The notes beneath the pieces were generated by a model. That model was not told the DNA's origin. It saw nothing but the letters and a program-made list of their open reading frames with translations, and ran no database searches. A stretch of DNA of 20,925 nucleotides, from contig CAVQGX010000054.1 of NCBI GenBank assembly GCA_963712115.1, forward strand, positions 1 to 20,925, read 5' to 3'. This document shows positions 1,352 through 19,842 of the stretch, in pieces (within the stretch, counting starts at the first letter, position 1; every line of letters starts with the position of its first letter). Position numbers and translations under genes: made by a program. The DNA is from an uncultured delta proteobacterium (GTDB lineage Bacteria > Desulfobacterota > Syntrophobacteria > BM002).

Positions 1352-1380
1352 AGTGTGAATTAAGGGATGTTATCTAAATT
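1352..1380. repeat. R-type 11-7-11 putative recombination site R1
   Basis: AGTGTGAATTA-AGGGATG-TTATCTAAATT; box CCCAACATCTTGTG at 1319-1332, 19 bp upstream. Confidence 0.85.
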
Positions 1381-2823: not shown

Positions 2824-2852
2824 CTCAAAGTTTATATACTTTAATCTGCACT
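2824..2852. repeat. L-type site L2 (outer arm degenerate)
   Basis: CTCAAAGTTTA-TATACTT-TAATCTGCACT; box TACAATATCTTGGC at 2872-2885, 19 bp downstream. Confidence 0.7.
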
Positions 2853-2926: not shown

Positions 2927-2959
2927 CTCAACATCTTGTGCCAATATAAATCCCAGAAG

Positions 2960-2988
2960 AGTGTGAATTAAAGGATGTAATTTAAACT
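2960..2988. repeat. R-type site R2
   Basis: AGTGTGAATTA-AAGGATG-TAATTTAAACT; box CTCAACATCTTGTG at 2927-2940, 19-bp gap. Confidence 0.85.
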
Positions 2989-3617
2989 TTTAGAGCTATC
3001 AAGGCGAGTTTATATTGCTCATCAATATATGTAATCGATCTTGCCCCTATACGATGCCCTTAATCGTTGCGAAATATTTTCATCAGCCCATGGCTTAGTC
3101 TATACTCTCCAACCCAAGGTAATCTGCCTGCACCACTGCAAAGGATCAGTCAAGTCACCAAAATCTCGCACATATTGACAGAAGAAATAATGTGGAAATG
3201 TAATTTTATACGAAATCGAAAGAAAATAGCAGCAAAACCAAGATATCGTTGAACCGCTAAATTGCATGTATTATGGGTATCATATAGATATTTCTCCATT
3301 TCTTAAACATTATAAAAAATATAAATATCTTGGTATGTTACAGGGCTGTCAAAAAAATTCTCCTTGATTCCCCAAGGGTTACTCTCTGTGCATAGCTTCT
3401 GTAGATAAAATTTATTTTTTGGCGCAAACTGCATTTGAAGGATTTAGAATATTGGCTTATCTTTCAAAATTATCTTTTCGTGTGGTGCCAATTCCGAGGG
3501 CGGATATAGCTGGCTCAGAATTTATCATAAAGGGGGGTGATAAAGGGCAATTCATTGCTGCATAGAGATCTTATGAGTTTGTGATTGTAAACAAAGCAAG
3601 CAAAGAGGGAGAGGAAC

Positions 3618-4001
3618 ATGAAAAGAGCGACTATCATTTCTTTAGCTTTGATTCTGGGTTTTTGTCTGGTAGCAGGTGCTTTTGCTGCAGATAAAGATGC
3701 TATTCAGAAACAAGTAGATGAAATTGTTGTATCCATCGATAGCGGAAAAAAAGCTGATGACTTTAAGGATGCAGCACAAAATAAGCCCAACTATGTATTT
3801 ATAATGGAAGAAGGTGGACAGATGTTGGTGCATCCGTCATTAGTTGGGCAAAGCCTTAAGGATAAAGCAGAGCCTGTTTATAATGAGTGTAGTAAAGCGA
3901 CTACCGATGGTACATGGGTTGAATATGAGTGGCAAGGGAAGCAAAAAAACACTTATGTAAGAAAAACCAAGGATGGTTTAATAGTCGGAAGTGGATACTG
4001 A
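3618..4001 (+). CDS. Secreted single Cache-domain-like protein
   Basis: GGAGAGGA RBS; signal peptide ending AFA; YVFIM..G.MLVHP.LVG, GTWVEYEW, KNTYVRK and IVGSGY motifs. Confidence 0.75.
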   Translation: MKRATIISLALILGFCLVAGAFAADKDAIQKQVDEIVVSIDSGKKADDFKDAAQNKPNYVFIMEEGGQMLVHPSLVGQSLKDKAEPVYNECSKATTDGTWVEYEWQGKQKNTYVRKTKDGLIVGSGY

Positions 4002-4056
4002 GAGTAATTCCTTTTTGTCTAAGTATCTTGTGTCAAAGGTTATAGAGAAATCGTGG

Positions 4057-4098
4057 TGTCGCCCATAGAAATTATTGTTTTATGGGCGACATTTTTTT
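4057..4098 (+). terminator. Intrinsic terminator
   Basis: TGTCGCCCATA / TATGGGCGACA perfect 11-bp stem + T7. Confidence 0.8.
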
Positions 4099-4172
4099 CA
4101 TATGGAGCCTCTTTCAAGAACTCAAAACTCCTGAAGATCATCGTCCTCAGATGACTCGAAGGTAAAGACTGC

Positions 4173-4236
4173 TTCTAACCACTTAATGCAGCGGACGCGG
4201 TAAATTGTACCGCAAGATTTCACCCTTCCGTTAGCA
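4173..4236 (+). other. Degenerate integron attC site
   Basis: TTCTAAC, then ATGCAGCGGAC, internal GCGGTA/TACCGC stem, ends GTTAGCA; L' side pairs poorly. Confidence 0.55.
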
Positions 4237-4289
4237 TATTAAGTCCGCATCGGTATCCCGAAAGTTCACATACCTTAAGAGCCTGTTCA

Positions 4290-5765
4290 CTAATGCCTCA
4301 AGTTTCTTGATCTATCAGAGTTTATTCCATATTTCTGGATGATACTCTGACCATTTTGATCTACTTTATTCTTTTCCAATACTATTCGATAACCCATTTC
4401 GTCCAATATAACGTGGTATTTCCCTCCATAACTCTCAAACGCATTTACTAAATCATTCATGTTGGCAATTCTTTTACCATTAACATAATATACAATTTTG
4501 TCATGTACGTTATGGTAGCCCACGTTAATCTCGTCAGCAAGAACTTTTGACAAGATAACCATTTCTCTCTTGTCTTCGGTGGGTTGTCCATAATAGTATT
4601 GATTTAACAAATTTTTTGAAGCCTCATGATGCCACTTATCGCCCCACAACTTTAGGAAGTTTACCGTCAATGGCTGAAATACCAACCCCCCCAGAATAAA
4701 ATATGTGGGGGCCACGTCATATTGTTCATACGGAACTAATTGGAGAGGATTCGAAGGCTTGGATAGTTTCACCCTAAGGGTTATTACTTTATTCTTTCTT
4801 AATACCTCAAACTCTACTGTATCATTGATATATTTATTTTGAATTAGATAATTAAAAGATGTCCTTTCCCCCTCCCTAAACTCTATTGTCCCATCGTTTT
4901 CGACAGTTTTTCCGTCAATTGAAAGAATAATATCTTCTGTTTCAAGTATCCCCTTGGCTGGGGAATCGGGATATATATTGTATACCAACACCCCAGTCTG
5001 TTGGGCGGTCATATCATATTTGCGCTTTATGTCTGGATTCTCCATATCTTGCCAGGCTATCCCAAGATTTGGTATTCCGTCATAGTTGCCGTCTCTTATG
5101 TCAGTCAAAAAATGGTCAACGATAGGAGTTGGAACCATATAGCCAATATTCTCAGCATCGTTCCCTGATCTAGACTGAAAGGCTACTCCAACTAGTTTGT
5201 CACCCCTGATTACAGGGCCACCACTATTACCAGAGTTAATTGCAGCATCAATTTGGCAAGCTAATAAATCGGCCATGCTGTGGGTATATTTACGATTCTC
5301 AACTCTAGAAACAACCCCTTCGGTAATGGACAATTTATCGCCACCTTCTGGAAAGCCGTAAACTGCAACCTTATCCCGAATTTCTGCCAGAGATCCGATG
5401 TCGATGGGTTTGACACCAGAGAAGAATGAATCATCATTTACTTTGAGGATAGCAAGGTCACACTCGTGAGCTACAACTTCTACTTCTGCTGTATACTTCT
5501 TCGCCTCTCCTGCTCTCCTCACCTGAATAAATGTCTGATTTGCTACCACGTGGGCATTCGTTAGGATTCTTTTCCCTCTAATAATACATCCAGAGCCGTT
5601 TCGCGAATTTTGCCCCATCTTTTGCCAGGGCTCATAGTAGTCATATTTATTAGTCACAGTGTATATTTTTACCACTGCATCTTTTATATATCTATTTGCC
5701 CATGCAGTTGGGGTACTAGCGAAACTTAAGATCATCACCAAAAAAATCATTTTGCTGCATTTCAT
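4290..5765 (-). CDS. Deg/HtrA-family trypsin-like serine protease with PDZ domains (Do-like 2 type)
   Basis: Signal peptide; catalytic triad motifs TNAHVV, CDLAIL, DAAINSGNSGGP; PDZ motif PDSPAKGIL...DIILSIDG. Confidence 0.92.
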   Translation of the reverse strand: MKCSKMIFLVMILSFASTPTAWANRYIKDAVVKIYTVTNKYDYYEPWQKMGQNSRNGSGCIIRGKRILTNAHVVANQTFIQVRRAGEAKKYTAEVEVVAHECDLAILKVNDDSFFSGVKPIDIGSLAEIRDKVAVYGFPEGGDKLSITEGVVSRVENRKYTHSMADLLACQIDAAINSGNSGGPVIRGDKLVGVAFQSRSGNDAENIGYMVPTPIVDHFLTDIRDGNYDGIPNLGIAWQDMENPDIKRKYDMTAQQTGVLVYNIYPDSPAKGILETEDIILSIDGKTVENDGTIEFREGERTSFNYLIQNKYINDTVEFEVLRKNKVITLRVKLSKPSNPLQLVPYEQYDVAPTYFILGGLVFQPLTVNFLKLWGDKWHHEASKNLLNQYYYGQPTEDKREMVILSKVLADEINVGYHNVHDKIVYYVNGKRIANMNDLVNAFESYGGKYHVILDEMGYRIVLEKNKVDQNGQSIIQKYGINSDRSRNLRH

Positions 5766-5860
5766 TATCGCCTCCAGTGGGAGGAGTATTTCCTATTGAA
5801 CAAAGATAGCGTCACTCTTGGCAAAACAGGACTATTGTGATGAAACAACCAATGAATCTA

Positions 5861-5876
5861 AGCAAAAGCAATGCCA
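5861..5876 (-). promoter_or_regulatory. sigma54 -24/-12 promoter for the protease
   Basis: Minus strand TGGCATTGCTTTTGCT, GG and GC 12 bp apart, ~95 bp upstream of the start. Confidence 0.6.
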
Positions 5877-6037
5877 AGTTCAACGTTGAGATTCTGCTTT
5901 TATATAAGCCTACTTTAAAAAGACCATATATGGTGGGGCAATCTTACCAATTGAGGGATAATCAATGAGGTTTTCTATGAGGTATGATCTTATCAGAATT
6001 TGATCTTTAACACCGAACTCCGCATCAGCCCTCTGAA

Positions 6038-6066
6038 AGTTTGCATTTCATACTTTAATCCACACT
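6038..6066. repeat. L-type site L3
   Basis: AGTTTGCATTT-CATACTT-TAATCCACACT; box CACAACATCTGGGA at 6086-6099, 19-bp gap. Confidence 0.85.
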
Positions 6067-6130
6067 TTCCCTTTTGAGACCCGACCACAACATCTGGGAT
6101 TGTTGAGCTATTCATTTTTCAAAGAGCAAT

Positions 6131-6157
6131 GCGGAGCTATTGCGGCTCCGCTTTTTT
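6131..6157 (+). terminator. Repeated linker terminator hairpin
   Basis: GCGGAGC-TATTGCG-GCTCCGC + T6. Confidence 0.8.
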
Positions 6158-6477: not shown

Positions 6478-6870
6478 ATGCTTGTGAAAAGAAAACAACA
6501 AATATCTCCTAGAGCTGACCTTAGATGGCAAGTGAACGCAGTAACTCCTAAAGGTCCATTAGAGGGAGTAACAAAAGATATTGGTACAAGAGGAGCTTAT
6601 GTATGTTGCGCTAGACCGCTGAGACTAAATGAAGTTTTTCATATGTCCATAAATGCCCCCGAAAAATCCCTTCATGTCAAAGCCGAAGTTGTCTGGTCGA
6701 ATAAATACGGCCCTGATGACGAAATTAACCCTCGTGGTATGGGTGTCCGCTTCCTAAAGATTTCATCTCAAGACCGAAAATTCATTGCTAAAGAGGTGAG
6801 CCAGCAGAGTGATGACGCACCAGAATTTGAAAAATTAGAAACTCTTACCCTGGAAGTGGGCGATGACTAA
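6478..6870 (+). CDS. PilZ-domain protein
   Basis: GGGAGG RBS; KDIGTRGAY (DxSxxG-like), AEVVW and GMGVRFLKIS motifs. Confidence 0.85.
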   Translation: MLVKRKQQISPRADLRWQVNAVTPKGPLEGVTKDIGTRGAYVCCARPLRLNEVFHMSINAPEKSLHVKAEVVWSNKYGPDDEINPRGMGVRFLKISSQDRKFIAKEVSQQSDDAPEFEKLETLTLEVGDD

Positions 6871-6974
6871 CTGAGGTTTTTCTTTGACTCCCTCTCTTGC
6901 TCTTATGTTCTCCTATTCCATAAAGTGAATCCTACCCTCGCCGTTAAAGACCTATTCGTTTTTGAGAGAACACT

Positions 6975-6998
6975 GCGGAGTCACTGGCTCCGCTTTTT
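6975..6998 (+). terminator. Repeated linker terminator hairpin
   Basis: GCGGAG-TCACTGG-CTCCGC + T5, preceded by the shared TATTCGTTTTTGAGAGAACACT motif. Confidence 0.8.
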
Positions 6999-7164
6999 AA
7001 TTTGCATTGGGTTTGCATTTGTGAGTCCGTGGGGTGAGCGTGGGGTTCATCCTGCTGGTGTGCAGATGCCCCCATCGGTTTGGTAACTGTCTGATGGGGG
7101 TAACTTTGTGACTCGCATTGACTTGATCATCCACAGCATTTGGTACCAGATTATATTTCAAGCG

Positions 7165-7189
7165 AGCGTAAATTAAGGGAAACCACAGT
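7165..7189. repeat. R-type site R4 (4 bp missing)
   Basis: AGCGTAAATTA-AGGGA..AACCACAGT; box CACAGCATTTGGTA at 7132-7145, 19-bp gap. Confidence 0.7.
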
Positions 7190-7229
7190 CCGCTCCCACC
7201 CCCCATGCTGCCTACTTACTGAAGTAGCG

Positions 7230-7245
7230 TGGCATAGGCTTTGCA
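7230..7245 (+). promoter_or_regulatory. sigma54 -24/-12 promoter
   Basis: TGGCATAGGCTTTGCA, 34 bp upstream of ATG 7280. Confidence 0.65.
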
Positions 7246-7279
7246 CTTCGAATCAGGCTAAAAATCGGAGGTTCCTGTC

Positions 7280-8413
7280 ATGAAAATGAAGCAAAGAACC
7301 GAAGTCATCGTATCAATATTGCTCATTGCTCTTTTCGCTTTAATGCAAGCTGCAACTGGATGCGGAGGCGGTGGAGGCGGTGGGGATGGAGGAACCGCTC
7401 CAGCCACAATAGACTCCACTACAGCCCCTCAGATTGCCACCGGCTTAGGGAATATAGCAGCGAGTACTCAATTAACCATTACTACTATTGGTTTGAACAC
7501 CGGAAGTGGTTTGTATTCTCCTAAGACGTTATTGCGTCACGTGGATCGTCTTTGGACTAGACAGGACGTGGCCATCCCCGGGACCGTACAACCACTTGGA
7601 TATGATTCTGCCACTTTCCCTTGTGCAGATGGAGGCGAGGTTACCATAAATGTCACGTGGGATGGTCCAGACAACCCAATAGATTGTAGTGAAATGAACA
7701 ATGTAAACATGGAGTTTGTTTATTCCGACTGCCAAGAGGGTATGGACACTTTGAACGGAACCATGGGGCTCTATGTGCCAGGTGACTCTTGCACAGATAC
7801 ACCCTCAGCTTTTGACATCTCGTTTACTAGCTTCAGATACCAGAATCCGCCGGAAGGCTCTGATTTCACTGTTAACTTCACAATGGTTTTTAATGGCCCG
7901 CAATACGACACGAATGACTACTTGGTGGGAGGTACAGTCTTATTTAACGGATCTATGAGCGGTTCTTTGGAAGGGACTTCAATGAATGTTACTTTTGACG
8001 CTTTGAATTTCGCTATGGCCGGAATGGCATATGATGCATTTGATGACATAGTGGAAGCGACTTTTACGATAAATGGTTCTATGTCTGGCAACATTGATGG
8101 GGATCAATTCAGTGAGAGATACCGCAATCTAGTTGTTCATTACGAACAGACTGTTCAGGGAGTTGATAGTGGCGAGGAATTTACTGTGAACGGCGACTAC
8201 GCAATAGGCTGTCTGGGTGGTTGGACCACTATTGAGACTTTGGTACCCGTATTTTGGCCAGATGGCGGTCATTGCCCAACCTCTGGGGAGGTAAGGATTT
8301 CTGGGGACGGAGAGGCCACAATTGAATGTCATAGCGATGGGAGCCTGACAATTTACGTGGATGGAGATACCTTAGATTATGCAAGCTGTGATGATCTGCC
8401 TCCGTGTATATGA
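7280..8413 (+). CDS. Putative lipoprotein, acidic, Cys-containing, predicted beta-rich
   Basis: GGAGG RBS; hydrophobic leader ending AATG-C followed by poly-Gly; paired Cys motifs (CADGG, CPTSG). Confidence 0.75.
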   Translation: MKMKQRTEVIVSILLIALFALMQAATGCGGGGGGGDGGTAPATIDSTTAPQIATGLGNIAASTQLTITTIGLNTGSGLYSPKTLLRHVDRLWTRQDVAIPGTVQPLGYDSATFPCADGGEVTINVTWDGPDNPIDCSEMNNVNMEFVYSDCQEGMDTLNGTMGLYVPGDSCTDTPSAFDISFTSFRYQNPPEGSDFTVNFTMVFNGPQYDTNDYLVGGTVLFNGSMSGSLEGTSMNVTFDALNFAMAGMAYDAFDDIVEATFTINGSMSGNIDGDQFSERYRNLVVHYEQTVQGVDSGEEFTVNGDYAIGCLGGWTTIETLVPVFWPDGGHCPTSGEVRISGDGEATIECHSDGSLTIYVDGDTLDYASCDDLPPCI

Positions 8414-8459
8414 ATTAATGCTTTAACAAACACAGTATTACTAACACTTCCGCAGTTTC

Positions 8460-8488
8460 GGGCAGGGTCATCTTGGCTCTGCCCTTTT
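8460..8488 (+). terminator. Intrinsic terminator
   Basis: GGGCAGGGTCA/TGGCTCTGCCC stem + TTTT. Confidence 0.7.
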
Positions 8489-8496
8489 GTTTGTAA

Positions 8497-8525
8497 ATTT
8501 TGCATTACATACTTTAATGCACAGT
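8497..8525. repeat. L-type site L5
   Basis: ATTTTGCATTA-CATACTT-TAATGCACAGT (TGCATTA/TAATGCA perfect inverted). Confidence 0.85.
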
Positions 8526-8578
8526 AACGCCCTTTTTTGACCACCTCTCCATGCAGTATTATGCTCTCCAAGGCGGAA

Positions 8579-8607
8579 AGTGGTGATTAAGGGATGTAAT
8601 CCGCAGT
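8579..8607. repeat. R-type site R6
   Basis: AGTGGTGATTA-AGGGATG-TAATCCGCAGT; only 53 bp from L5. Confidence 0.85.
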
Positions 8608-8820
8608 TTTGCACTGGCCCTTTTCTTGCAAAAGTTTGTCTGCGTATTTCAGGTTGTGATCAGAGCGGATATAGGTTTCGGTGTTTTCCGTTTTTAATAT
8701 TGCAGATGTTATCGAATAAATAACTGTAATTTCTCATAGTTTACGATACAGACATGAGACTTTCCGCATTATAAAGCGGATAATACGCCGTATAATCTAA
8801 GATTAGGCAGCAAAGATGAA

Positions 8821-9885
8821 ATGACCCAAGCTTCCTCACCTATCAGATTTATCTGCTTCTTGGTAGCCACCCTGTCCGTGTTTACATCCGCCCTGCAGGC
8901 CAACGCCGGAGTGCGGATCGCCATGGCCGACGGCCTCGAACCGGGGCGGCACTTCCTGGTGACCACTACGATCTTCAACCGCGGGTTTGATGGTTTCTTT
9001 ACAGAGCGACTCGACAGTTGCTTTTTGACCTCAGGCGAGAGGAAAGATATCACCTTACTGGCGGTCAAGCCGTTTTTCTATGATCGTGTCTCCGCCGACG
9101 CTGTTCATCCCGGCTTTTATGGCGATAGCACTAAATCCTATAAGGTACCGTTTGCACTGCGTACCGTAGTCCTGCCGACCCTGCGCCCACCTAGTTGGCG
9201 GTACTTTTTGGACAGCGGGGCGCCGATTAGGAAAGGCGGTGTTGGCATCACCCCCAGTAACGTCAACGACCACTTCCATTTAATCTTGCACCAATACCTG
9301 CCAGCCTTTGATCGCGCCGGCATCAAGGAGGACTTGTGTCAATACTTGCCACTTCTGCATGAAATGGCTGCCTTTGCTCACAGCGAACAAGCCTACGAAA
9401 ACAGCAAAGCCACCTTGGACCGACTCTCTGGCACGACCCAAGAGAAATATGTTGAATCCCTGAAAATAACCGTGGAACGATATCGGAGGGAGTTGGATCA
9501 GCGGCTCAAGGAGATCAAAGCATGGTTGGCACTGGAACAGAGCAAGCGGGCGCCGATGCACGACTGGATGGTTCATTTCCATAAGGCCGATTATGTCTAC
9601 CGAGAGATGATGAATGATTCAGACCACAAACGGATACAGCAATGGTTGGAAAAGAACGGTGATTTTCCCCGCGAGGCAACGCTGCAGTGGACCAACGCCG
9701 AAACCGGTCTACGCTACATTTTGCACCTCAAAACCGGTATCACTGGGAAATGGGGCTCCGGTTACAGTACTGTCTTAACCGTCGATCTTAATCCGATTCT
9801 CGGGTTAGAAAACCATCAGCGGTATCTGAAGAAGAGCTATCCTGATTTCTATCGAAATGCAGGGGGAATGTGGAAATTAAAATAG
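8821..9885 (+). CDS. Hypothetical secreted protein (integron cassette gene)
   Basis: 354-aa ORF, signal peptide ending ANA, followed by attC. Confidence 0.7.
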   Translation: MTQASSPIRFICFLVATLSVFTSALQANAGVRIAMADGLEPGRHFLVTTTIFNRGFDGFFTERLDSCFLTSGERKDITLLAVKPFFYDRVSADAVHPGFYGDSTKSYKVPFALRTVVLPTLRPPSWRYFLDSGAPIRKGGVGITPSNVNDHFHLILHQYLPAFDRAGIKEDLCQYLPLLHEMAAFAHSEQAYENSKATLDRLSGTTQEKYVESLKITVERYRRELDQRLKEIKAWLALEQSKRAPMHDWMVHFHKADYVYREMMNDSDHKRIQQWLEKNGDFPREATLQWTNAETGLRYILHLKTGITGKWGSGYSTVLTVDLNPILGLENHQRYLKKSYPDFYRNAGGMWKLK

Positions 9886-9922
9886 GGTGTGGGGTTAAAA
9901 AAGAGAAATAGACGGCGAGAAT

Positions 9923-9982
9923 GCTTGACAAAACTCTGCGGCGGATGGCTTACAGCCCCGCCGCCTAGCTTGGCCGTCATGC
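9923..9982 (+). other. Integron attC site (variant GAC/GTC core)
   Basis: GCTTGAC...GCGGCGGATGGCTTACAGCCCCGCCGCC...GTCATGC, 60-bp imperfect palindrome between co-oriented ORFs. Confidence 0.7.
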
Positions 9983-10003
9983 ATTCAGAGAGATTCGGCA
10001 GAC

Positions 10004-10636
10004 ATGGCAATGAATGACAGCCCTAAAGATCGAAGGGGGTACGCAGCGCACGCAGCGTGGGCAGTGACTGCCGTCGCCGTGTCCCTTCTCATGATATTCA
10101 CAATAAACAAGGGGCATCCTCCTTTTATAGTCTTCCTTCCGCTGGTTATTCTCGTCTGGGTTGTGGGGCACCTTGCTATCTGGGGCGTCGCGTGGCTGGT
10201 TGTCAAGGGTCGGCGTGTTGCTAGCGGAACCCGAAGTGAAGGCAGATCTTGGCCAGTTGGCCTCAGGCTCGCTGTAATTGGTACAGGCGTTCTCACATCG
10301 GTAGGAGTGTTTCAAATTCTAGTGACAGGTTACCTGGGCAGGTTGTATCCATATCACTATGCTAATCTTTGGGCGCTCATGCTGGTCATAAAGCTTGTTC
10401 ACGCAGCGTGTTTTGTGGGACTGCTGTTACGACAGCGGTGGTCACGTCACATGAGCGCGCTGCTAGCGGTTGGGTGGGCGATGTTATTGGCGTCGCAGAT
10501 ATCAGAGCATTTGCCTCCAAGGGCTCCCTCGAACATCGCAGAATTAATGATCGCCTTCGGGATAATGGTGTTTCTATTCATACTCGGTCTTCACCTTGTT
10601 GTTTCACGCGAAGTGAAGTCGTTTCTGAAGAATTAA
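10004..10636 (+). CDS. Hypothetical multi-pass membrane protein (cassette gene)
   Basis: About six hydrophobic segments; flanked by attC sites. Confidence 0.75.
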   Translation: MAMNDSPKDRRGYAAHAAWAVTAVAVSLLMIFTINKGHPPFIVFLPLVILVWVVGHLAIWGVAWLVVKGRRVASGTRSEGRSWPVGLRLAVIGTGVLTSVGVFQILVTGYLGRLYPYHYANLWALMLVIKLVHAACFVGLLLRQRWSRHMSALLAVGWAMLLASQISEHLPPRAPSNIAELMIAFGIMVFLFILGLHLVVSREVKSFLKN

Positions 10637-10640
10637 GAAT

Positions 10641-10721
10641 GCATAACAAGCGCATCGAGGGGACCGACCGCAAGTGGCGATTTTCTTACTTGCACCCGGC
10701 CCCTCAGGCGCAACGTTATGC
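10641..10721 (+). other. Integron attC site (canonical)
   Basis: GCATAAC...GTTATGC perfect R''/R' pair; internal GAGGGG/CCCCTC and GCAAGT/ACTTGC stems; 81 bp. Confidence 0.9.
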
Positions 10722-10731
10722 ATAAGAGATT

Positions 10732-11220
10732 ATGAAATTCCTCATCAGATCAATAGCATTTGTGATAGGAGGATATTGTTTATATAAATTGTTATCAACC
10801 TGGCGAGCGATAGTATATTTCTTTGCAGACTTCTTTCGAGGGCCTGTTTCACCAGACATCGAACCGTGGTTTGCAATCCCATTGACACTGCTGACGATCT
10901 TGCTACTCTTCGCAGGAGTTGTTTCCTCATATGGTCTCTTCCATTTATGGCAGTGGGGTAGAAAGTTAGCCATCGCTGTATTGGGTCTCGACTTCCTCTT
11001 GCGATTGTACGGCGCCATAAATGTGTCGACTTACTCACTGCGCCATCCGGAACCCCCGCCCATTCCAAAAGATGCCGTAATCGTTGGGACCATCAGCATG
11101 TGGCCGTCCTACATTACCGGGATCATCAGCCTTATTTTCATAACCATATTAACGCGAAATTCAATTAGAGATGAGTTCAATGGAAAACCCATCGAACAGA
11201 TTGATGCGGCAAATGCATAA
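10732..11220 (+). CDS. Hypothetical membrane protein (cassette gene)
   Basis: About four TM segments; stop codon TAA lies inside the next attC R'' box GCATAAC (11215-11221). Confidence 0.75.
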   Translation: MKFLIRSIAFVIGGYCLYKLLSTWRAIVYFFADFFRGPVSPDIEPWFAIPLTLLTILLLFAGVVSSYGLFHLWQWGRKLAIAVLGLDFLLRLYGAINVSTYSLRHPEPPPIPKDAVIVGTISMWPSYITGIISLIFITILTRNSIRDEFNGKPIEQIDAANA

Positions 11221-11236
11221 CCCTTATAAGGCCTCC

Positions 11237-11747
11237 CCTTGTCAAGGGATAAAGGTATCCTGGTAACGAAAAAATGTTTTTTCGTTAGAACGCCTGATGC
11301 TGCCGTAACAAGGTTCAGCGTTCTGACTTGGTTTCAAAAGTTCAGGTTTACAGAAGCCGTGTCTGCACCAAACACCTATCGACGCTCATGCCGCTCTATG
11401 TGAGGCAAGCGGCGTTGGGCCTGCTGGATAAAGGCCCGGACCTAGAAATATATCCGTACCCGCATACCGGCCCGATCAAATCGACGGGATCATGGTAATT
11501 ACCAGTCCCAGTTAGAGCGGGGCTCGGGGACGGGGCAGAACACGGAAGCCGTTGTTCTGACATCATCGGTATAGAAAGATAGGGGCCAGGATGTGGATCC
11601 AATCAACTCGTAGGGACTCAGGGTTATCTCCTACGGTACCGTTTGCACTCTCTGGTGCAGTCGGTTGGACTTTTTCAGGTTCCTTGACGAGGTTGTCCCT
11701 TGGCGTTCCAGTTAGACGAATGGGCTCACACACCCTGCCCCGAGCTG
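11237..11747 (-). ncRNA. IS1111 3' non-coding region, likely source of the seekRNA/bridge RNA
   Basis: Position matches the IS1111 subfamily; several hairpins and short matches to the insertion junctions; exact RNA ends unknown. Confidence 0.55.
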
Positions 11748-12794
11748 TTATGTTTCGTTGAAAAAGACTTTCATACTGAATGGTTCCTTTCGTTTGAGCA
11801 TGAAGTAGGCGGCGCGGCCGATTTTGTGAGCCAGGATTGAGAGAGCCTTTCCTTTGCCGTATTTGCTGACCAGCCGGGCGTGGTAGTGTTGCGCTTGCTC
11901 GTTTCCTCTCAGGAAGAGACAAGCCGCTTCAGAGAAAGCCCACTTGAGGTGAGCGTTTCCGATCTTGCTATTTTTGGTACCGAACTTTTTTCCAGCTGAT
12001 TCTCTGGGGCATTTGACCAAGCGGCAATAGGAGACGAAGTCCTGGACTCTGGGAAACCGTTTGATATCGTGGATTTCATAGAGGAGAATGAGACCGAGGA
12101 TTTTGCCGACTCCGGGGATACTTCGCAAACGATACCAGCTGTAGGCATCGTCCACTTTGGCCTTTTTGACGATATAGAGTTCGAGGTCATTGAGGAGCTG
12201 GTCGTAGAAATCGAGTAGTTGAAGATCGACCTCGATGCTTTTGCTAACGGAAGGGTCGGGGAAGTGTTCGGCAACACCTTCACGGTTTGCCTTGTAGGCG
12301 AGTTTTTTGCCAAACTCTGGTAGATTGTATTGGCTGTTGGTGTTTTGGATATGGGCGAGGAGCTCAGAGCGTTTACGCATGAGGTGGTTTCTGCGGCGCA
12401 GCAGATCCCGGGTTGAGCGCATCTTTCTGGGGTAGACGTAGGCCATGGGGATGTTGCCTCCGCGAAGCAGGGTAGCGATCTTCTTGGAGTCGATTTTGTC
12501 GTTTTTACTTTTGCCCCCATGGATAGCCTTCATGTAGAGGGCGTGGCCGAGGACGAAAGGGATCTTCTCTTTGGCGCAGAGATCAGCCAACCAGTACCAG
12601 ACGAACATGCATTCGACGGCGACAACGATATCCTCCCGAAAGGGCTCGATGGCTTTGAGCAATGCCTCTGCTGAGGCTTTCCTGTTACGGTGGAACACTG
12701 TTTTGCCTTGCTCGTCCACAATGCAGATGTACATGGAGCGGGCGTGAAGGTCGATTCCGCAGTAATAGTTGTGTTGTTTGGTGTAGAATCTCAT
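11748..12794 (-). CDS. IS110-family DEDD transposase/recombinase
   Basis: GIDLH, VAVEC, KNDKIDS (DEDD), LRSIPGVG, ESAGK, KIGNAHLKWA motifs; AAAGGAGG RBS. Confidence 0.95.
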   Translation of the reverse strand: MRFYTKQHNYYCGIDLHARSMYICIVDEQGKTVFHRNRKASAEALLKAIEPFREDIVVAVECMFVWYWLADLCAKEKIPFVLGHALYMKAIHGGKSKNDKIDSKKIATLLRGGNIPMAYVYPRKMRSTRDLLRRRNHLMRKRSELLAHIQNTNSQYNLPEFGKKLAYKANREGVAEHFPDPSVSKSIEVDLQLLDFYDQLLNDLELYIVKKAKVDDAYSWYRLRSIPGVGKILGLILLYEIHDIKRFPRVQDFVSYCRLVKCPRESAGKKFGTKNSKIGNAHLKWAFSEAACLFLRGNEQAQHYHARLVSKYGKGKALSILAHKIGRAAYFMLKRKEPFSMKVFFNET

Positions 12795-12878
12795 TGGGCT
12801 TCCTCCTTTGGTTGAAGATTATGGTTAAGGGACAAACCACATCTTACTATGCCATTGGAGGAGGCCTTAATAAGTATC

Positions 12879-12907
12879 AACTCGCTGCAGTCGGACGGGG
12901 CAAACAG
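12879..12907 (+). other. Remainder of the interrupted attC, left half only
   Basis: AACTCGCTGCAGTCGGACGGGGCAAACAG with no complementary right arm or GTT box before site L7. Confidence 0.7.
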
Positions 12908-12929
12908 TTTCTTTTGATTTTCGGTACTG

Positions 12930-12954
12930 ACTGAAAATTACTTTAATCCACACT
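12930..12954. repeat. L-type site L7 (4 bp missing in spacer)
   Basis: ACTGAAAATTA-CTT-TAATCCACACT; box TACAATATCTTGAT at 12974-12987, 19-bp gap. Confidence 0.8.
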
Positions 12955-13002
12955 TTTCCATTTAAGACCAAGCTACAATATCTTGATTTAAAATTAGAAA
13001 AT

Positions 13003-13028
13003 GCGGAGTCACTGGCTCCGCTTTTTTT
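13003..13028 (+). terminator. Repeated linker terminator hairpin
   Basis: GCGGAG-TCACTGG-CTCCGC + T7. Confidence 0.8.
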
Positions 13029-13064
13029 CTTCTCAACATTTTGTGCCTGAGCAAATCCCAGTAA

Positions 13065-13093
13065 AGTGTGAATTAAGGGATGTAATCTACAGT
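13065..13093. repeat. R-type site R8
   Basis: AGTGTGAATTA-AGGGATG-TAATCTACAGT (arms 8/11 inverted); box CTCAACATTTTGTG at 13032-13045, 19-bp gap. Confidence 0.9.
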
Positions 13094-13420
13094 TTCTCCT
13101 CAGTTGCCTCCAATACTTGATCTCATTTGACACAGTCCACCTAGTTGTCATATCTTAAAAGCAGTTCACGCTCCTTATATTGCTCATCTGCGAGTGACAT
13201 TCTTTTCGTAAAGCATTCACAAGGCAAGTTTCTTTCTCTAGATATATTCAGAACCGCACAGGCCTACCTAAATAAGTAAGGCATTTCTTGTCAGTTGCAT
13301 TGGTTTCTCCATTACTGGTCGTTTATTACTCAGCAACCAGGGAGGTGAGGTGATGGCCGAGGAAAGATATGGACTGACATTGGTGGTTTTGCCAACTTTT
13401 TTATTTTCCGGAGGTGTAAG

Positions 13421-13849
13421 ATGCCTGTAAGAACTGCAGAAGCCGAATGGAAAGGGAATTTGAGTCGTGGCTCTGGACAAATGAAGTTGGGCAGCGGAGC
13501 TTTTGAAGGATCTTTTAGCTTCCCATCTCGATTTAAGGATGGACCGGGCAGCAATCCGGAGGAACTAATAGGCGCAGCGCACGCCGGCTGCTTCTCAATG
13601 GCGCTGTCCCATATGCTGTCCGAGGCTGGCCATATACCGGACGTGGTCCACACCAAGGCCAAGGTCCATATTGATAAAGTGGATGAGGGTTTCAAAATCA
13701 CCACTATTGAGTTGCAGGTGGAAGCTAAGGTCCCCGGGATTAACGAAGAGACTTTCCAGGAAAAGGCAGAGGCTGCTAAGGAAGGATGCCCCGTTTCCCA
13801 AGCCCTGGCCGGTACGGATATCAAGCTGGAAGCCAAACTCTTGAGCTAG
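13421..13849 (+). CDS. osmC: OsmC-family peroxiredoxin
   Basis: GGAGGT RBS; AEWKGNL..GSG, GSNPEELIGAAHAGCFSMAL and AKEGCPVSQAL motifs. Confidence 0.93.
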   Translation: MPVRTAEAEWKGNLSRGSGQMKLGSGAFEGSFSFPSRFKDGPGSNPEELIGAAHAGCFSMALSHMLSEAGHIPDVVHTKAKVHIDKVDEGFKITTIELQVEAKVPGINEETFQEKAEAAKEGCPVSQALAGTDIKLEAKLLS

Positions 13850-14027
13850 CGTCCGTGGCCGGTTGCAAAAAGAGCATGGGGCATGAAGCATAGATTAAGG
13901 AGCCAGGATTCAGAATTTATGTTGTCTGCTGTCGGATTTCACAACCATAGTGGTCTCGAGCGTTTACCTCTAATCATTAGCAAGCATACGATGGAGAAAA
14001 CCTTGGCTGCGCTCCCCCCGTGGGTCT

Positions 14028-14258
14028 TTAGAGTTTAGCGCAAGGGTTGTTGAAAAGCGAGAGCAGAACGCTTCTGAGAGGCTCGCCTGCCATTTCGGCG
14101 AATGCGCTTACGTTTTTACCCACTTCCTTTTCGAAGTCGTCGTTGATTTTTCGCATATCTTTCTCATTGCCCTCAGCCATGGCGCTGGACATTTGCTCTT
14201 CATATAGTTCTACTTGGCCTCTTATTACTGTGCCCAGTTCACCCAGGTATGTTTCCAT
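14028..14258 (-). CDS. Small hypothetical helical protein (76 aa)
   Basis: Strong RBS AAGGAG just upstream of ATG on the minus strand; protein-like composition. Confidence 0.6.
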   Translation of the reverse strand: METYLGELGTVIRGQVELYEEQMSSAMAEGNEKDMRKINDDFEKEVGKNVSAFAEMAGEPLRSVLLSLFNNPCAKL

Positions 14259-14539
14259 TTAAACACTCCTTGCTGCTCGAGCCCTTATCTTTGACTTACT
14301 AAGAGCGCTCATATTACATCACAAGTATCCAACCTAAAATGGGGTCTTAGCAGTATTTTGTCCCCAGAAAAGGTGTAGGAGATAACGGAGGTATTTTTAT
14401 ATGGCAAGGACGGAAAATAAGTTTCAGAGACTTATTACAAGTACCCAGATAGCCAAACGCTTCCTGTCGGTAGCATTTGGAACCCATATGTTACTGTGAA
14501 GGAGCTTGGGAAAGGACAGAAAAAGGGGAGGGAGACTCT

Positions 14540-15301
14540 ATGAATACCAAGTCCAAGCCAGTAGTTAAAACAACTAAAAGGATTCCCAAAAATTTTGACA
14601 TAGATTCCTTGATGCCCAAGGGTATGAAGAATTGGTTAAAATTTCGCTCTGAGTTGAAAAAGCTTGGATTCGAGCCAGATGAGATTAAGAATCTCTGGGG
14701 TCACTATGTAAAGGCAGGAGTGTTGGATGAGGGCATTTTGGCTGGTAAGCCTACTAAATCTACTAGCTCAGTAAAACCTAAGAAAAAACGGAAAACTGCT
14801 ACGATTAAGCCAAAGTCGAAAAGAGGCAGATCCCAGCAAATAGCTGCAGCGGGGGACTTCTTTGTTGCCGCAGAACTTTCCCGCCGAGGTGCTCATACCG
14901 CAGTTTACCTTGGCAATATGCCACGAATTGACCTTTCTGCCACCAATATCGATCAGACAAGGGTAGTGAGCATACAGGTTAAGACACGGAGATCTGGCAC
15001 ATGGCAGTTGAATAACCAAGATGGCGAGCCACGCAAGAAAAACCCCGAAGAGGATCGTTTCTGGATTTTTGTGGACCTTCTGAAGAACAAGCTGCAACCA
15101 GACTACTATATTGTGCCTGAGTGGTGGATAAAAAATGACATGTACGAGGCTCATTTGGCTTATGAAAAGAAAAAAGGTAGGAAAGTCAAACTTCCCTTAG
15201 AAGCTGGCCATCACAGTATTGCACTAGATCGTATTTGGAAATGGAAAGACAGGTGGGATATCCTTGGCCTTGATCTTGAAGAGGTGAAGGGGGTAGAGTG
15301 A
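14540..15301 (+). CDS. PD-(D/E)XK-superfamily nuclease with basic N-terminal extension
   Basis: ATG 14540 after GGGAG; AGDFFVAAELSRRG, PRIDL and IQVKT motifs. Confidence 0.75.
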   Translation: MNTKSKPVVKTTKRIPKNFDIDSLMPKGMKNWLKFRSELKKLGFEPDEIKNLWGHYVKAGVLDEGILAGKPTKSTSSVKPKKKRKTATIKPKSKRGRSQQIAAAGDFFVAAELSRRGAHTAVYLGNMPRIDLSATNIDQTRVVSIQVKTRRSGTWQLNNQDGEPRKKNPEEDRFWIFVDLLKNKLQPDYYIVPEWWIKNDMYEAHLAYEKKKGRKVKLPLEAGHHSIALDRIWKWKDRWDILGLDLEEVKGVE

Positions 15302-15414
15302 TCAGTCAAGAACTTCTTAGAAAAGCTTGTCGACGAAGTGCTCTTTGGATTGTACGCCGAACCCTTTTTTTAATTCGACCCCCCACGTGTAGTAGTATTC
15401 TTTCCAGAGCCAAA

Positions 15415-15443
15415 AGTGTGAATTAAGGGATGTAATACAAAGT
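15415..15443. repeat. R-type site R9
   Basis: AGTGTGAATTA-AGGGATG-TAATACAAAGT; box-like CCCCACGTGTAGTA at 15381-15394, 20-bp gap. Confidence 0.88.
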
Positions 15444-15551
15444 CCGCTCCCAGCCCCTCCATGCTACACACACATTCTCTCCCCGATTGCCCGCCTGTTG
15501 AAGAAATCCACAAATTAAGTCCAAACCCCTACTAAAATGGTAGTTTTTCTA

Positions 15552-15580
15552 TTGACTCTAGCTCGACTCATTCCTATCCT
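15552..15580 (+). promoter_or_regulatory. Putative sigma70 promoter
   Basis: TTGACT-N17-TATCCT. Confidence 0.45.
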
Positions 15581-15779
15581 TTTGACCGAATGTTTTTACT
15601 ACTAACACGGTTATAGGTAACTCGGTTTAGGCATTCTAAAAATATGGATTTTAGGGATATTTTGGACGTGTATTCATAATTCGGCATCAATATTCATTAA
15701 CAAGACTTCACACGTAAAAGTATAAGAAAACATTCTATCCTCGTATTAAACAGGATTTAGCTTCACAAGGAGGTTGAAA

Positions 15780-16670
15780 ATGAGTGGTAAAATTAAATCG
15801 GTATTCTTTGTTTTGATGACAGGGTTCATGTCACTTGCACCTACCGTACAATCTGCCGAAGTGAAAATTATGACTATCCCGGTCACTGAGCAGATATACA
15901 TGATTACGGGAGAAGGCGGTAATATCGGCTTGTTCATCGGTGCGGATGGGACATTTTTAATTGACGACCAGTATGCTCCTCTAACGGAGAAAATTGTAGC
16001 GGCCATCAAATCGGTTGGTGGTGATTTCCCCAAATTTCTGATCAATACCCATTACCACGGCGATCACACTGGCGGAAACGAGAACCTGGGTCAAGGAGGA
16101 ACCTTGATTTTTTCTCACGATAATGTACGGGAGCGTTTGAGCACTGGTTCCTTTATCGAGGCGTTCAATACGAAGCGGGAAGCTGTTTCCCGGGAAGGCT
16201 TACCGGTCGTGACTTTCTCAGAGGATATTAGTTTCCACCTTAACGGCGACAGTATCCGTGCCACCCATGTGCCCCACGCCCACACCGATGGTGACAGCTT
16301 CATCCATTTTAAGAAAGCCAATGTTATTCACGCCGGCGACATATTTTTCAATGGTTTCTATCCGTTTATCGATGTTACCCATGGGGGTTCCCTCAAGGGG
16401 ATGATCAAAGCTGTCGACAAAGTTTTAGCGCTGGCTGATGACAATACAAAAATTATCGCAGGGCACGGCCCCTTGGGAGATAAGGCACAGTTAACACGTT
16501 ACCGTCAGATGCTCGGGATCGCTTATGAACGCTTGAGTAAGCTTAAAGCGGAAGGAAAAACCGCCCAGGAGGCGTCCGCCACCAGACCCCTAGCCGATCT
16601 TGATGCAACTTGGGGCGATGGGATCTTCAAGAGCGATCGCTGGATCGAGATAATTTACTCCGGAGTCTAA
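15780..16670 (+). CDS. Secreted MBL-fold metallo-hydrolase (cyclase-like group)
   Basis: AAGGAGG RBS; signal peptide; NTHYHGDHTGGN, AHTDGD, HAGD and IAGHG metal motifs. Confidence 0.9.
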   Translation: MSGKIKSVFFVLMTGFMSLAPTVQSAEVKIMTIPVTEQIYMITGEGGNIGLFIGADGTFLIDDQYAPLTEKIVAAIKSVGGDFPKFLINTHYHGDHTGGNENLGQGGTLIFSHDNVRERLSTGSFIEAFNTKREAVSREGLPVVTFSEDISFHLNGDSIRATHVPHAHTDGDSFIHFKKANVIHAGDIFFNGFYPFIDVTHGGSLKGMIKAVDKVLALADDNTKIIAGHGPLGDKAQLTRYRQMLGIAYERLSKLKAEGKTAQEASATRPLADLDATWGDGIFKSDRWIEIIYSGV

Positions 16671-16752
16671 ATGGTAAAGCGGGCTGATTTATTTAATGCC
16701 TCGCAATCAATGAATCGGACGACAATAATCTTCGAACCAAGAAGTCACAGGC

Positions 16753-16789
16753 TTCTAACCATTCGCTGCAGTCGGATGCGGCTAACAGC
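16753..16789 (+). other. Left half of an attC site
   Basis: TTCTAAC-CATTC-GCTGCAGTCGGATGCGGCTAACAGC, similar to the reconstituted 11215/12879 site; no right half. Confidence 0.65.
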
Positions 16790-16805
16790 TTTGTTGATGC
16801 TCTGG

Positions 16806-16825
16806 ACTGTGAATTACATACAACT
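16806..16825. repeat. L-type site L10 (about 9 bp missing)
   Basis: ACTGTGAATTA-CATAC..AACT; box CACAACATATTGGG at 16845-16858, 19-bp gap. Confidence 0.72.
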
Positions 16826-16915
16826 TTTGTTATTTTGAAAAAGCCACAACATATTGGGTCGAACCAAGGAGGAGTATTATCCCCGCCCTGCAGAGCTATT
16901 TATTTTCCAAGAACT

Positions 16916-16940
16916 ATGCGGAGCCGGAACTCCGCATTTC
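16916..16940 (+). terminator. Variant linker hairpin
   Basis: ATGCGGAG-CCGGAA-CTCCGCAT, preceded by GCTATTTATTTTCCAAGAACT. Confidence 0.6.
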
Positions 16941-17133
16941 ATTTTTCGATACCATTTAGCAACACCCAAACTGTCCCAAATTCCTCTGAGGTGGGGATTT
17001 TTCTATTGCCTTCATTTCACATCTCATAAAATTTACTTTCTCAATTGCAAATATTCGCACTTCCTCCTTGCAACTCGCCACGCCTTTTCGTAATTTGACC
17101 AGCGGCGCATCAATTTTACAGTGGTAGAATCTT

Positions 17134-17784
17134 ATGGCCAATCCTGAACACTTGGTTATCCTCAAAAGAGGTGTGCAATTCTGGAACTCTTGGAGGAGCG
17201 AGAATCCGAATACACGTCCTGACTTTAGTGGGGCTGACCTTTCTCAAATCAGCCTGAGGGGAGCATTTCTTGCTAGTGCTAACTTGGAGGGTGCTTCTCT
17301 CGTTTCAGCCGACTTGGAGAAGGCGATTATCTGGGGGGCTAATCTACAGAAGGCAAACCTTCAAACGGCCAATCTTGAGGAAACAGACTTTTTTGAAGCT
17401 AATCTCAAGAGTGTGAATCTTTTGAGAGCCAAAATGCAAAAAGCTGACCTGACAAAAGCGAATCTGCAAGAGGCACTACTTGCTAAGGCTGATCTTGCCT
17501 GGGTGAGGCTCTGGCAGGCTAATTTGAAAGAAGCGGATTTATACAAAGCTAACCTAAAGAAAGCCAATCTTTACGGTGCAAATTTAGAGGGTGCTGACCT
17601 TCTGGAGACTAACTTCACTAGAGCAATTCTTTTAGAAACAAAGCTCAAAGGTGCTTTAAATCTATCTGTTAGACAAATTTCCCAAGCCATGACATTACAC
17701 AAATCTGAGTTGGAAGAAGCCTTAATGGGGAGGCTGCAAGAAGGTTATCCTCATCTTTTGGAAAGGCCAAAGTCTGGAGAGTAG
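17134..17784 (+). CDS. Pentapeptide-repeat protein
   Basis: MANPEHL..LK.GV..WN.WR N-terminus and tandem A(D/N)Lxx repeats. Confidence 0.92.
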   Translation: MANPEHLVILKRGVQFWNSWRSENPNTRPDFSGADLSQISLRGAFLASANLEGASLVSADLEKAIIWGANLQKANLQTANLEETDFFEANLKSVNLLRAKMQKADLTKANLQEALLAKADLAWVRLWQANLKEADLYKANLKKANLYGANLEGADLLETNFTRAILLETKLKGALNLSVRQISQAMTLHKSELEEALMGRLQEGYPHLLERPKSGE

Positions 17785-17803
17785 CGGATAGGTATGCAAG
17801 TAC

Positions 17804-19818: not shown

Positions 19819-19842
19819 AGTAAAGATTACATACTGCACACT
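19819..19842. repeat. L-type site L11 (5 bp missing)
   Basis: AGTAAAGATTA-CATACT..GCACACT; box CACAACATCTAGGG at 19862-19875, 19-bp gap; downstream linker resembles 6067-6165. Confidence 0.78.

Follow-up and report, generated by a model that had tools for sequence, protein, structure and literature searches.

The question raised by this locus is whether the short repeats that punctuate it are recombination sites, of two kinds that each exchange with their own kind. The locus lies at positions 8497-13093 of contig C54 of an uncultured delta proteobacterium. The whole contig, 20,925 bp in length, is the window that was analysed, and the source genome (G000) is an assembly of 4.9 Mb in 70 contigs. 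Related genomes are labelled G002, G005, G006 and so on, contigs carry the letter C, and fetched loci carry L with three digits (L0xx and L1xx). The repeats themselves are of two types, L and R. The original prediction held that these form two discrete spacer classes, that inversion between L and R is disfavoured, and that events between like sites excise, insert, or swap whole modules. All of the motif positions on which it was built are correct (CATACTT at 6049 and 8508, TATACTT at 2835, AGGGATG at 1363, 8590, 13076, and 15426, and AAGGATG at 2971). The repeats belong to a genus-wide family of lox/dif-like sites that cuts accessory DNA into portable gene modules. The chance that L and R represent two classes within one kind of double-strand site for site-specific recombination, bounding modules that are probably moved by a Xer-like recombinase, is put at roughly one half.

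Two discrete classes of site

The core consensus of the site is ATTA-CATNCNT-TAAT. Arms of approximately 11 bp surround a 7 bp spacer, each half-site having the form TAAT-NN-A-N-A-N-T, and the whole site is 29 bp. Read from the weakly conserved outer arm to the well conserved inner arm, R is aaAcTtta.ATTA CATCCCT TAATTCACACT and L is ggAcTgta.ATTA CATACTT TAATCcACACT. Besides the spacer, L and R differ at the base after TAAT, in the outer-arm consensus, and in the approximately 45 nt of inner flank. The motif ACAAYATCTTG is found approximately 28 nt inside every core, in L and R alike.

Exact matches to ATTACAT-NNN-TTAAT in G000 have CCC in 60 cases and ACT in 23, with seven single-base variants that are all singletons. 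A seed that fixes CAT, TTAAT, and part of the inner arm, leaving NNN free, has 228 matches in this genome, with CCC in 95, ACT in 52, and no other triplet more than 5 times. Exact cores are present in 19 of 22 genomes of the family, and the 509 cores found there comprise 300 with CCC, 167 with ACT, and 42 others (467 of 509 in the two classes). The tabulation of spacer alleles that had been proposed as a check has thus been made, and it bears out two discrete classes, both in G000 and across the 19 genomes, rather than continuous variation. Spacer class is also linked to inner-flank type in G000, for 94 of 96 CCC sites and 49 of 52 ACT sites. Each of the rare triplets (CCT, CAC, TCC, and CCA; AGT and AAT) differs by a single base from one of the two classes, on whose inner flank it is also found. 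Site R2 in the window, with the spacer CATCCTT, had been ascribed to either a hybrid or a mutation; its R-type inner flank (scoring +26.3) favours a one-base variant of R, and a hybrid origin is less favoured. Within the genus, 16 of the 17 genomes other than G000 contain the R 21-mer; it is present in 1 of 4 from other genera of the family and in 0 of 19 outside the family. In genomes assembled as a single contig, the repeats are spread over the whole chromosome.

Arm complementarity is that expected of independent columns at 13 of 13 mirrored positions, with no covariation, and beyond ATTA/TAAT the arms pair at only 4.3-4.7 of 9 positions. The absence of arm covariation suggests a double-strand binding site, occupied by a protein dimer on duplex DNA, and not a hairpin of the repetitive extragenic palindromic (REP) or attC type.

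The window was scored with weight matrices trained on G000 minus the window, for which the best of 20 shuffles gave -0.8. Eleven sites in the window score above this, six R on the minus strand and five L on the plus strand. The 15-nt core ATTACATMCYTTAAT, at no more than 3 mismatches, occurs 12 times compared with 2.6 expected, and 0 of 100 shuffles reach 12. Damage is seen in 5 of 6 L cores and 2 of 6 R cores. The sites and the features associated with them, including open reading frames (ORFs) and an insertion sequence (IS), are as follows.

1359..1373, minus strand: R1 core, ATAA-CATCCCT-TAAT; score 70.8; R-type inner flank at approximately 1318-1358
2831..2845, plus strand: L1 core, degenerate, TTTA-TATACTT-TAAT; score 29.3; terminator-like hairpin at 2901-2919
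2967..2981, minus strand: R2 core, variant spacer; score 64.1; 138-type doublet with L1
6045..6059, plus strand: L2 core, ATTT-CATACTT-TAAT; score 70.3; terminator-like hairpin at 6131-6151
7172..7186, minus strand: R3 core, damaged (outer ATTA and CAT replaced); score 15.8; repeat family D3
8504..8518, plus strand: L3 core, ATTA-CATACTT-TAAT; score 42.5; left half of an 82-nt doublet
8586..8600, minus strand: R4 core, CATCCCT; score 33.8; right half of the 82-nt doublet
8821..11220, plus strand: cargo of three ORFs (8821-9885, 10004-10636, and 10732-11220); no Pfam match above the curated cut-off
11218..12878, minus strand: IS110/IS1111-family IS; transposase at 11748-12794; inserted at the 5' end of an attC remnant
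12876..12935, plus strand: 5' half of a canonical integron attC; attC profile E 2.4e-9; fused directly to the inner half of L4
12933..12947, plus strand: L4 core, outer half replaced (GAAA-ATTACTT-TAAT); score 42.5; inner flank intact; hairpin at 13003-13021
13072..13086, minus strand: R5 core, CATCCCT; score 74.9
15422..15436, minus strand: R6 core, CATCCCT, a solo R; score 47.9; decayed partner L at approximately 15330-15352, identified by eye
16755..16809, plus strand: second attC 5' half; attC profile E 1.3e-4; abuts a truncated L core
16812-16820, plus strand: truncated L core ATTACATAC, identified by eye only; terminator-like hairpin at 16916-16937
19826..19836, plus strand: L6 core remnant ATTACATACTG, gapped (TTAA lost); score -0.4, borderline; L-type inner flank; repeat families D7 and D11; hairpin at 19907-19929

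The region 8497-13093 therefore reads, in order, as the L3-R4 doublet, the three-ORF cargo, the IS110/IS1111 element, the attC 5' half fused to L4, a hairpin, and R5. The cargo has a GC content of 47-52%, compared with 36-42% in the adjoining modules. L cores are followed by the conserved inner flank, to which the long form adds a terminator-like hairpin (GCGGAG...CTCCGC and a T-run). Back-to-back L/R doublets in the window span 82 nt (8504-8600) or approximately 138 nt (2831-2981 and 12933-13086). L2 and R3 flank a PilZ gene (6478-6870), which is in an inner-facing position.

Geometry, breakpoints and portability of the modules

The proposed mechanism has two alternating kinds of module, with R (spacer CATCCCT) and L (spacer CATACTT) lying inverted to each other. 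Cargo would be bounded by outer arms facing in, usually in the order R-genes-L, and linkers would be bounded by inner arms facing in. Most linkers would be doublets of 82 or 138 nt, the longer kind holding the terminator. A tyrosine recombinase would cut and rejoin the DNA within or beside the spacer, pairing R with R and L with L, so that one cargo could be released with one linker in circular form and be inserted wherever a like site is present; a cargo could be replaced by a pair of crossovers. The exchange would be catalysed by a 278-aa Xer-like enzyme, which would be mostly off through a run of A's that places its first 18 codons out of frame. From the arrangement of the sites, it is plausible that the two-base difference between the spacers blocks recombination of L with R. 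That the whole constitutes a natural two-site cassette exchange, with one recoded Xer-like recombinase acting on shared arms with two spacer differences, such that R-cargo-L units are excised, inserted, or swapped at any of the arrays of the genus and never inverted, is a tentative proposal.

Sites in G000 that lie no more than 6 kb apart were taken as neighbours, from a total of 99 R and 54 L. Neighbours in direct orientation are of the same class in 48 of 49 cases (R-R 38, L-L 10, mixed 1). Inverted neighbours are of unlike class in 56 of 58, 30 of these L/R pairs being outer-facing and 26 inner-facing, with the remaining 2 being of like class. Seventeen of the inner-facing pairs are doublets at a spacing of 81-82 or 137-139 nt. 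Within arrays, the R sites all have one orientation and the L sites all have the opposite. Of 29 cargo modules, 23 have their longest ORF reading from R towards L and 6 have it in the opposite direction, and the cassettes carry their own upstream DNA (235-650 nt) and terminators.

Breakpoints are concentrated at the cores. Intragenomic duplications of at least 250 bp and at least 90% identity have 703 internal ends, of which 34 are no more than 15 nt from a core centre, compared with 1.5 expected and a maximum of 7 in 200 randomisations; some of the ends counted near cores are IS insertions into the core. If the count is restricted to the 103 ends that lie no more than 500 nt from a site, these 34 compare with 3.2 expected. 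The L site at C3:123621 is chimeric, its outer side being that of C39:6929 and its inner side that of C13:18499, and four R sites have one common inner flank and four unrelated outer flanks. Sequence variants of the outer ATTA are linked to the outer flank, and the identity of the base that follows TAAT is linked to the inner flank. Because of this, the exchange maps to a 12-nt interval containing the spacer, from base 3 of the outer ATTA to the first base after TAAT. At R5, contigs from metagenomes diverge just outside the 32-nt palindromic site at 13064-13095, with loose ends at 13063/13064 and 13095/13096.

Modules of the window recur singly in other species, beside other neighbours, at 86-95% identity. 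These include 1295-2907 (G014), 1580-2883 (G005 and G011), 2927-4881 (G006), 13068-13882 (G005, where it starts at the R5 core), 15748-16711 (G003), and 16823-17799 (G006). A search for inverted copies of one cargo, as L x R recombination would leave behind, gave only 4 distinct duplicated pieces that have sites at the ends of both copies; in every one of this small number, site class at each end is retained. The predicted module exchange is upheld as regards like-with-like pairing, polarity, and portable R-gene-L modules. As regards double crossover, as opposed to excision and reinsertion of one cargo with one linker, no two loci with the same two linkers and different cargo were found. Overall, the sequence evidence supports the view that the repeats act as recombination sites and that each class pairs with its own kind.

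A further duplication involves the Cache-protease module of the window (3519-6081), which is present at 97% identity at C36:23455-26018. That copy has a complete 138-nt doublet after it instead of the inner-facing PilZ module of the window, the homology stopping 29 nt inside L2.

A candidate recombinase

No tyrosine recombinase gene was found in the window. The most likely enzyme, as the best candidate from sequence, is a 278-aa Xer-like tyrosine recombinase with core-binding and catalytic domains and without an arm-binding domain. It matches PF00589 above the cut-off (E 5e-20 to 2e-21) and PF13495 weakly, and R142, H224, R227, H251, and Y260 are invariant across the 8 candidate sequences that were aligned. 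Its best NCBIfam match is to archaeal XerA (NF040815, an equivalog family; E 2e-34), with scores of 115.6 and 119.2 bits that are below the 220-bit cut-off.

The gene is associated with the sites in several genomes. On C123 of G006 there is an R core approximately 190 nt upstream and an L core approximately 68 nt downstream, with inner arms facing the gene. The R side of this arrangement is repeated on C209 of G005 and the L side on C536 of the same genome, the DNA outside the cores being unrelated in each. G011 and G018 have an L-like core downstream of the gene, and the G000 copy (C3:1094-1930) occupies a place that is taken by an 82-nt doublet in a paralogous locus on C28. Since the inner arms of the cores face it, the recombinase gene occupies the position of a linker. 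Upstream of the gene the ACAAYATCTTG motif recurs, again 28 nt inside the R core, and there it overlaps a promoter-like pair, TTGAGA-N18-GATAAT, identified by eye. The position of the gene is suggestive of the doublets being deletion derivatives of the recombinase element. Catalysis by this enzyme is presumed from its domains and its location.

A run of 5-10 A's follows codon 18-20 in 43 of the 80 fetched relatives, as caught by pattern (A8 in 23 and A7 in 12). The N-terminal peptide (MxxxxAxxxxLEYH-like) is in a different frame from the body of the gene at 27 of the 80 loci and in the same frame at 7; 45 were missed by the pattern and 1 was too near a contig end. The copies in G006, on C209 of G005, and in G018 are out of frame by one base, and the G000 copy is in frame. 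The A-run suggests programmed slippage, either transcriptional or by +1 frameshifting, or else phase variation at the DNA level. Seen in many unrelated assemblies, such recoding is an example of how an enzyme of this kind may stay nearly silent. Loci with the A-run include L025, L023, L029/L032, and the 43 of 80 among L032-L111.

Relatives of the recombinase were found as 357 stretches in contigs representing one genome per species, mostly from metagenome-assembled genomes (MAGs) of the Desulfobacterota type. Of the 80 loci from this wider family, 36 with enough flank had an inverted repeat of at least 9 nt around the gene, a few of them convincing (L110/L062 at -87/+87 and L065/L053 at -195/+95). 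The L/R core was not seen at the wider-family loci outside the genus and G018.

Other enzymes were considered. In G002, G013, G016, G007, G001, G003, and G006, tyrosine recombinases at E<=1e-8 are of the XerC/XerD type only, and several site-bearing genomes, including G002 and G013, have just two of them, a XerC-like and XerD-like pair. The genus has a dif-like site, TCTGATAA-TGTATA-TTATGTAAACT (TCTGATAATGTATATTATGTAAACT), which is single copy in G013 and G018 and present as one copy plus a 3-mismatch variant in G002 and G000. This site differs from L and R in its arms and in the length of its spacer, therefore XerCD is unlikely to be the enzyme. The dif-like copies in G000 are at C43:75937-75961 and C49:23175-23199, one of the two having the 3 mismatches and the spacer TTAATC. 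Those in G002 (C1:289576 and 280948) are 8.6 kb apart and inverted, and may mark an insert that exploits Xer. A 411-aa integrase found beside arrays on C39 and C11 was rejected as the cognate enzyme, since a search of 14 other genomes of the genus found it in only 2. A resemblance of the site to ColE1 cer (TTAAGGGA) was dropped when the arms failed alignment by eye.

Several observations weigh against the reading of L and R as two like-with-like classes served by this recombinase. The differences between L and R extend beyond the spacer, so that spacer heterology is not isolated as the cause of their separation, and the motif at approximately +28 could impose direction instead of the spacer. 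Sites with a spacer and flank that appear mixed number one or two of 148 in G000, and among 42 sites from relatives, which were not chosen at random, 5 have CCC on an L-like inner flank and 5 are unclear. These mixed sites could have arisen by occasional exchange between L and R, or could be R sites whose flank has diverged less. There are 99 R sites to 54 L sites, with 38 direct R-R neighbour pairs from which L has been lost. This indicates that L is often dispensable and that much could run on R x R alone, just as integrons use one end of attC; an integron-like cycle of R with R may do most of the work. No recombination product was seen directly in contigs from four public metagenome runs. 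These have very high summed depth on the doublets, and all of the joints have short sides (18-30 nt) and are most simply taken as repeat-induced, so that these contigs speak neither for nor against excision, deletion, or inversion. As for the enzyme, the G000 copy has no canonical cores beside the gene, and the similarity of doublet interiors to the recombinase element, as judged by a profile of R inner flanks run against the regions upstream of the recombinase, is limited to a motif of 13-15 nt (nhmmer E 0.4-0.9). Only 8 of the 19 genomes with sites yielded the recombinase, and G017 yielded an N-terminal fragment. No copy was found in G002, G013, G009, G015, G003, G007, G016, G014, or G008, most of which are fragmented MAGs, where repeats assemble badly, yet all of which carry sites. 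Two of these, G002 and G013, are single contigs, with 24 and 17 exact cores, and G009 has 57 cores.

Competing explanations and known systems

The location of the recombinase gene between inner arms raises the alternative that L and R are the unlike ends of a small recombinase-bearing element that inserts between genes. The doublets would then be derivatives similar to miniature inverted-repeat transposable elements (MITEs), the difference in spacers would be plain asymmetry of the ends, and the cargo would only seem portable, being flanked by elements at which rearrangements later take place. Conservation of the inner arms and of approximately 45 nt of flank, with weak outer arms, is the pattern of an element end against its target. 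The presence of ACAAYATCTTG 28 nt inside both L and R as well as upstream of the recombinase gene fits the same explanation, as does the flanking of the gene in distant relatives by inverted repeats of their own approximately 90-200 nt away. However, ends that are inverted would not allow excision by a tyrosine recombinase through L x R, and the class-specific consensus of the outer arms indicates that these are part of the site and not a random target. There is no target-site duplication at the doublet C5:2208/2290 (one case, by eye), 38 direct runs are of solo R, and the homology of the interiors is not significant. This explanation is considered unlikely.

A second alternative is a single-site system resembling an integron, in which the L-linker-R doublet is a composite site like attC. 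R would be the only regular crossover point, L an accessory half that can decay, and the mobile unit one cargo with its doublet. The excess of R, the direct R-R pairs, and the greater damage to L than to R in the window would be expected of this, and the arrays are co-oriented. There is also a true integron in the same genome, at C27:1-3303, with an IntI-like gene (2350-3303), at least three attC sites of approximately 117 nt (2-119, 490-606, and 1635-1752), and one partial site; its cassettes run off the start of the contig. A profile of the C27 attC sites has full matches only on C27, and elsewhere only half-sites next to L cores. The attC 5' half directly abuts the outer side of the L core at six places (window 12876-12935 and 16755-16809, C27:118283-118332, C31:156417-156476, C42:183916-183969, and C60:7134-7195), and the matching 3' halves were found only on C27. 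Integron boxes have the consensus RYYYAAC / GTTRRRY, and IS110/IS1111 elements target attC. Insertions of this IS family are also found here: the element at 11218-12878 sits at the CATAAC^C start of the attC, and the joined flanks rebuild the attC 5' end. Against this explanation, chimeras of L with L exist, the lack of arm covariation argues against a folded single-strand site, and the cores are unlike integron boxes. The cassettes have upstream DNA and terminators of their own. The integron integrase on C27 is the only one that was inspected; a match of similar score is present in three other genomes of the genus, with most lacking one. A single-site system of this kind is thought improbable.

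Copies of the IS110/IS1111 element at C29:8378-9992 and C9:20689-22303 share the ends TATAAGGCCTCC...GGAGGCCTTTATAAG. Two other repeated elements start at fixed points in R sites, one after TTAATTCACAC (C42:18351, C41:2018, and C36:19671) and one after TTAAT (C5:20503 and C11:77420). These fixed starts within R sites suggest that the cores are insertion hot spots for several types of IS.

Structural repeats like REP sequences or bacterial interspersed mosaic elements (BIMEs), with no recombinase of their own, binding a host protein or ending transcripts and broken by occasional homologous or illegitimate recombination, would account for the chromosome-wide dispersal, the inverted pairing of two palindrome types, whose linkers have discrete lengths with terminators in the long one, the IS insertions, and the persistence of sites in genomes without the candidate recombinase, but are very improbable given that the arms neither covary nor pair as REP stems do, that breakpoints fall in 12 nt although the repeats share up to 60-100 nt, that the 15-nt core is nearly invariant across 19 genomes, and that none of the 4 inspected PF01797 genes (Y1 transposase, or REP-associated tyrosine transposase, RAYT) is flanked by cores (none within 900 nt at no more than 2 mismatches).

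The closest known system to the two-class sites proposed here is that of the dif modules of Acinetobacter plasmids. According to PMC13141974, inversions, deletions, and module replacement at plasmid dif (pdif) sites were seen only between sites with spacers that are identical or have one mismatch. The spacer-identity rule for tyrosine recombinases on which the original prediction relied is therefore documented for a natural analogue. The same paper describes the excision of module pairs between direct sites and the replacement of a single module by two crossovers, and PMC10132070 describes the targeting of Acinetobacter pdif sites by IS elements. In both systems, accessory genes lie between inversely oriented sites in alternating geometries, called C/D there and inner- or outer-facing here. 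Here, the 30 outer-facing and 26 inner-facing L/R pairs are accompanied by 48 direct pairs of like class. The systems differ in that the sites here are chromosomal, genus-wide, and of the Desulfobacterota type, whereas those of Acinetobacter are on plasmids. Here the arms are ATTA/TAAT and TCACAC with a 7-bp spacer, there the arms are dif-like with a 6-bp spacer; here there are two spacer alleles, each locked to one orientation, and long direct runs of R, there many alleles. The candidate enzyme here is a single, recoded, module-borne Xer-like recombinase, in place of XerC/XerD.

Archaeal XerA/dif shares with the candidate system a two-domain enzyme, and the near-symmetric site suits a single recombinase. 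Unlike XerA, the candidate is bacterial, multi-copy, module-borne, and recoded at the A-run, and is not a chromosome-dimer resolvase. Simple tyrosine recombinases occur on mobile elements, according to PMC8138268.

Integrons resemble these arrays in having co-oriented cassettes of unrelated function, a conserved repeat between cassettes that consists of a pair of simple sites in inverted orientation, one end being better preserved, and IS110/IS1111 insertions. The arrays here, unlike integrons, have no boxes, no signal of a single-strand fold, and no integrase beside them; cassettes come with their own upstream regions and terminators, and the arrays are many, small, and scattered over the chromosome.

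Heterospecific lox/FRT cassette exchange is established engineering practice. As here, two variant sites flank a cargo and like recombines with like. The engineered systems, in which unlike pairs do not recombine, are man-made with variants that differ only in the spacer, whereas here arms and flanks also differ slightly and the non-reactivity of L with R is read from the arrangement of the sites.

BIMEs are pairs of Y and Z units in inverted doublets, and REP elements serve as IS hot spots. The sites here share with REP sequences, BIMEs, and REP doublets forming hairpins (REPINs) the features of dispersed intergenic palindromes, two unit types, inverted doublets, fixed linkers, and IS hot spots, and differ from them in the absence of RAYT association, the absence of stem covariation, and breakpoints in the middle of the palindrome.

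A full-text literature search, which was short on subscription journals, found no description of this system, only papers on integrons, dif modules, engineering, and recoding. If the proposed mechanism is correct, uncultured sediment bacteria of an entire genus, and of part of its family, exchange gene modules by a system that is neither an integron nor Xer/dif. Such a system would have a site and a small recombinase of its own as well as an inherent safeguard against inversion, and would be the third natural architecture for capturing cassettes. It would match integrons and dif modules as their chromosomal counterpart, on a principle that engineers later used for lox/FRT exchange, and would help to explain breaks in gene order at these repeats. 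A compact recombinase with two apparently orthogonal 29-bp sites would also be a candidate tool for genome engineering.

The remaining contents of the window are an unrelated mix of genes, as identified by ORF and family scans. In addition to the PilZ gene, these encode a CsgG-like lipoprotein, a DUF2333 protein, a Cache domain protein, a trypsin-PDZ protease, OsmC, a protein of the metallo-beta-lactamase fold, pentapeptide-repeat and PEP-CTERM proteins, a methyltransferase, and several ORFs without a family. GC content jumps from block to block, module to module, between approximately 36-42% and 47-53%. Scans of the window against Rfam and for transfer RNAs gave no matches. The public runs that share some of its sequence come from sediment metagenomes (marine, estuary, and other), and no more than 32% of the sequence words of 6500-16400 are present in any one run. 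Two mobile elements are present in the window, the one of the IS110 family described above and one of the IS630 type. The latter (17804-18925) has terminal inverted repeats of 32 nt and a copy that is 98% identical at C11:80756-81881. Its transposase is split across two overlapping frames, 17875-18399 with helix-turn-helix (HTH) domains and 18326-18967 with DDE_3.

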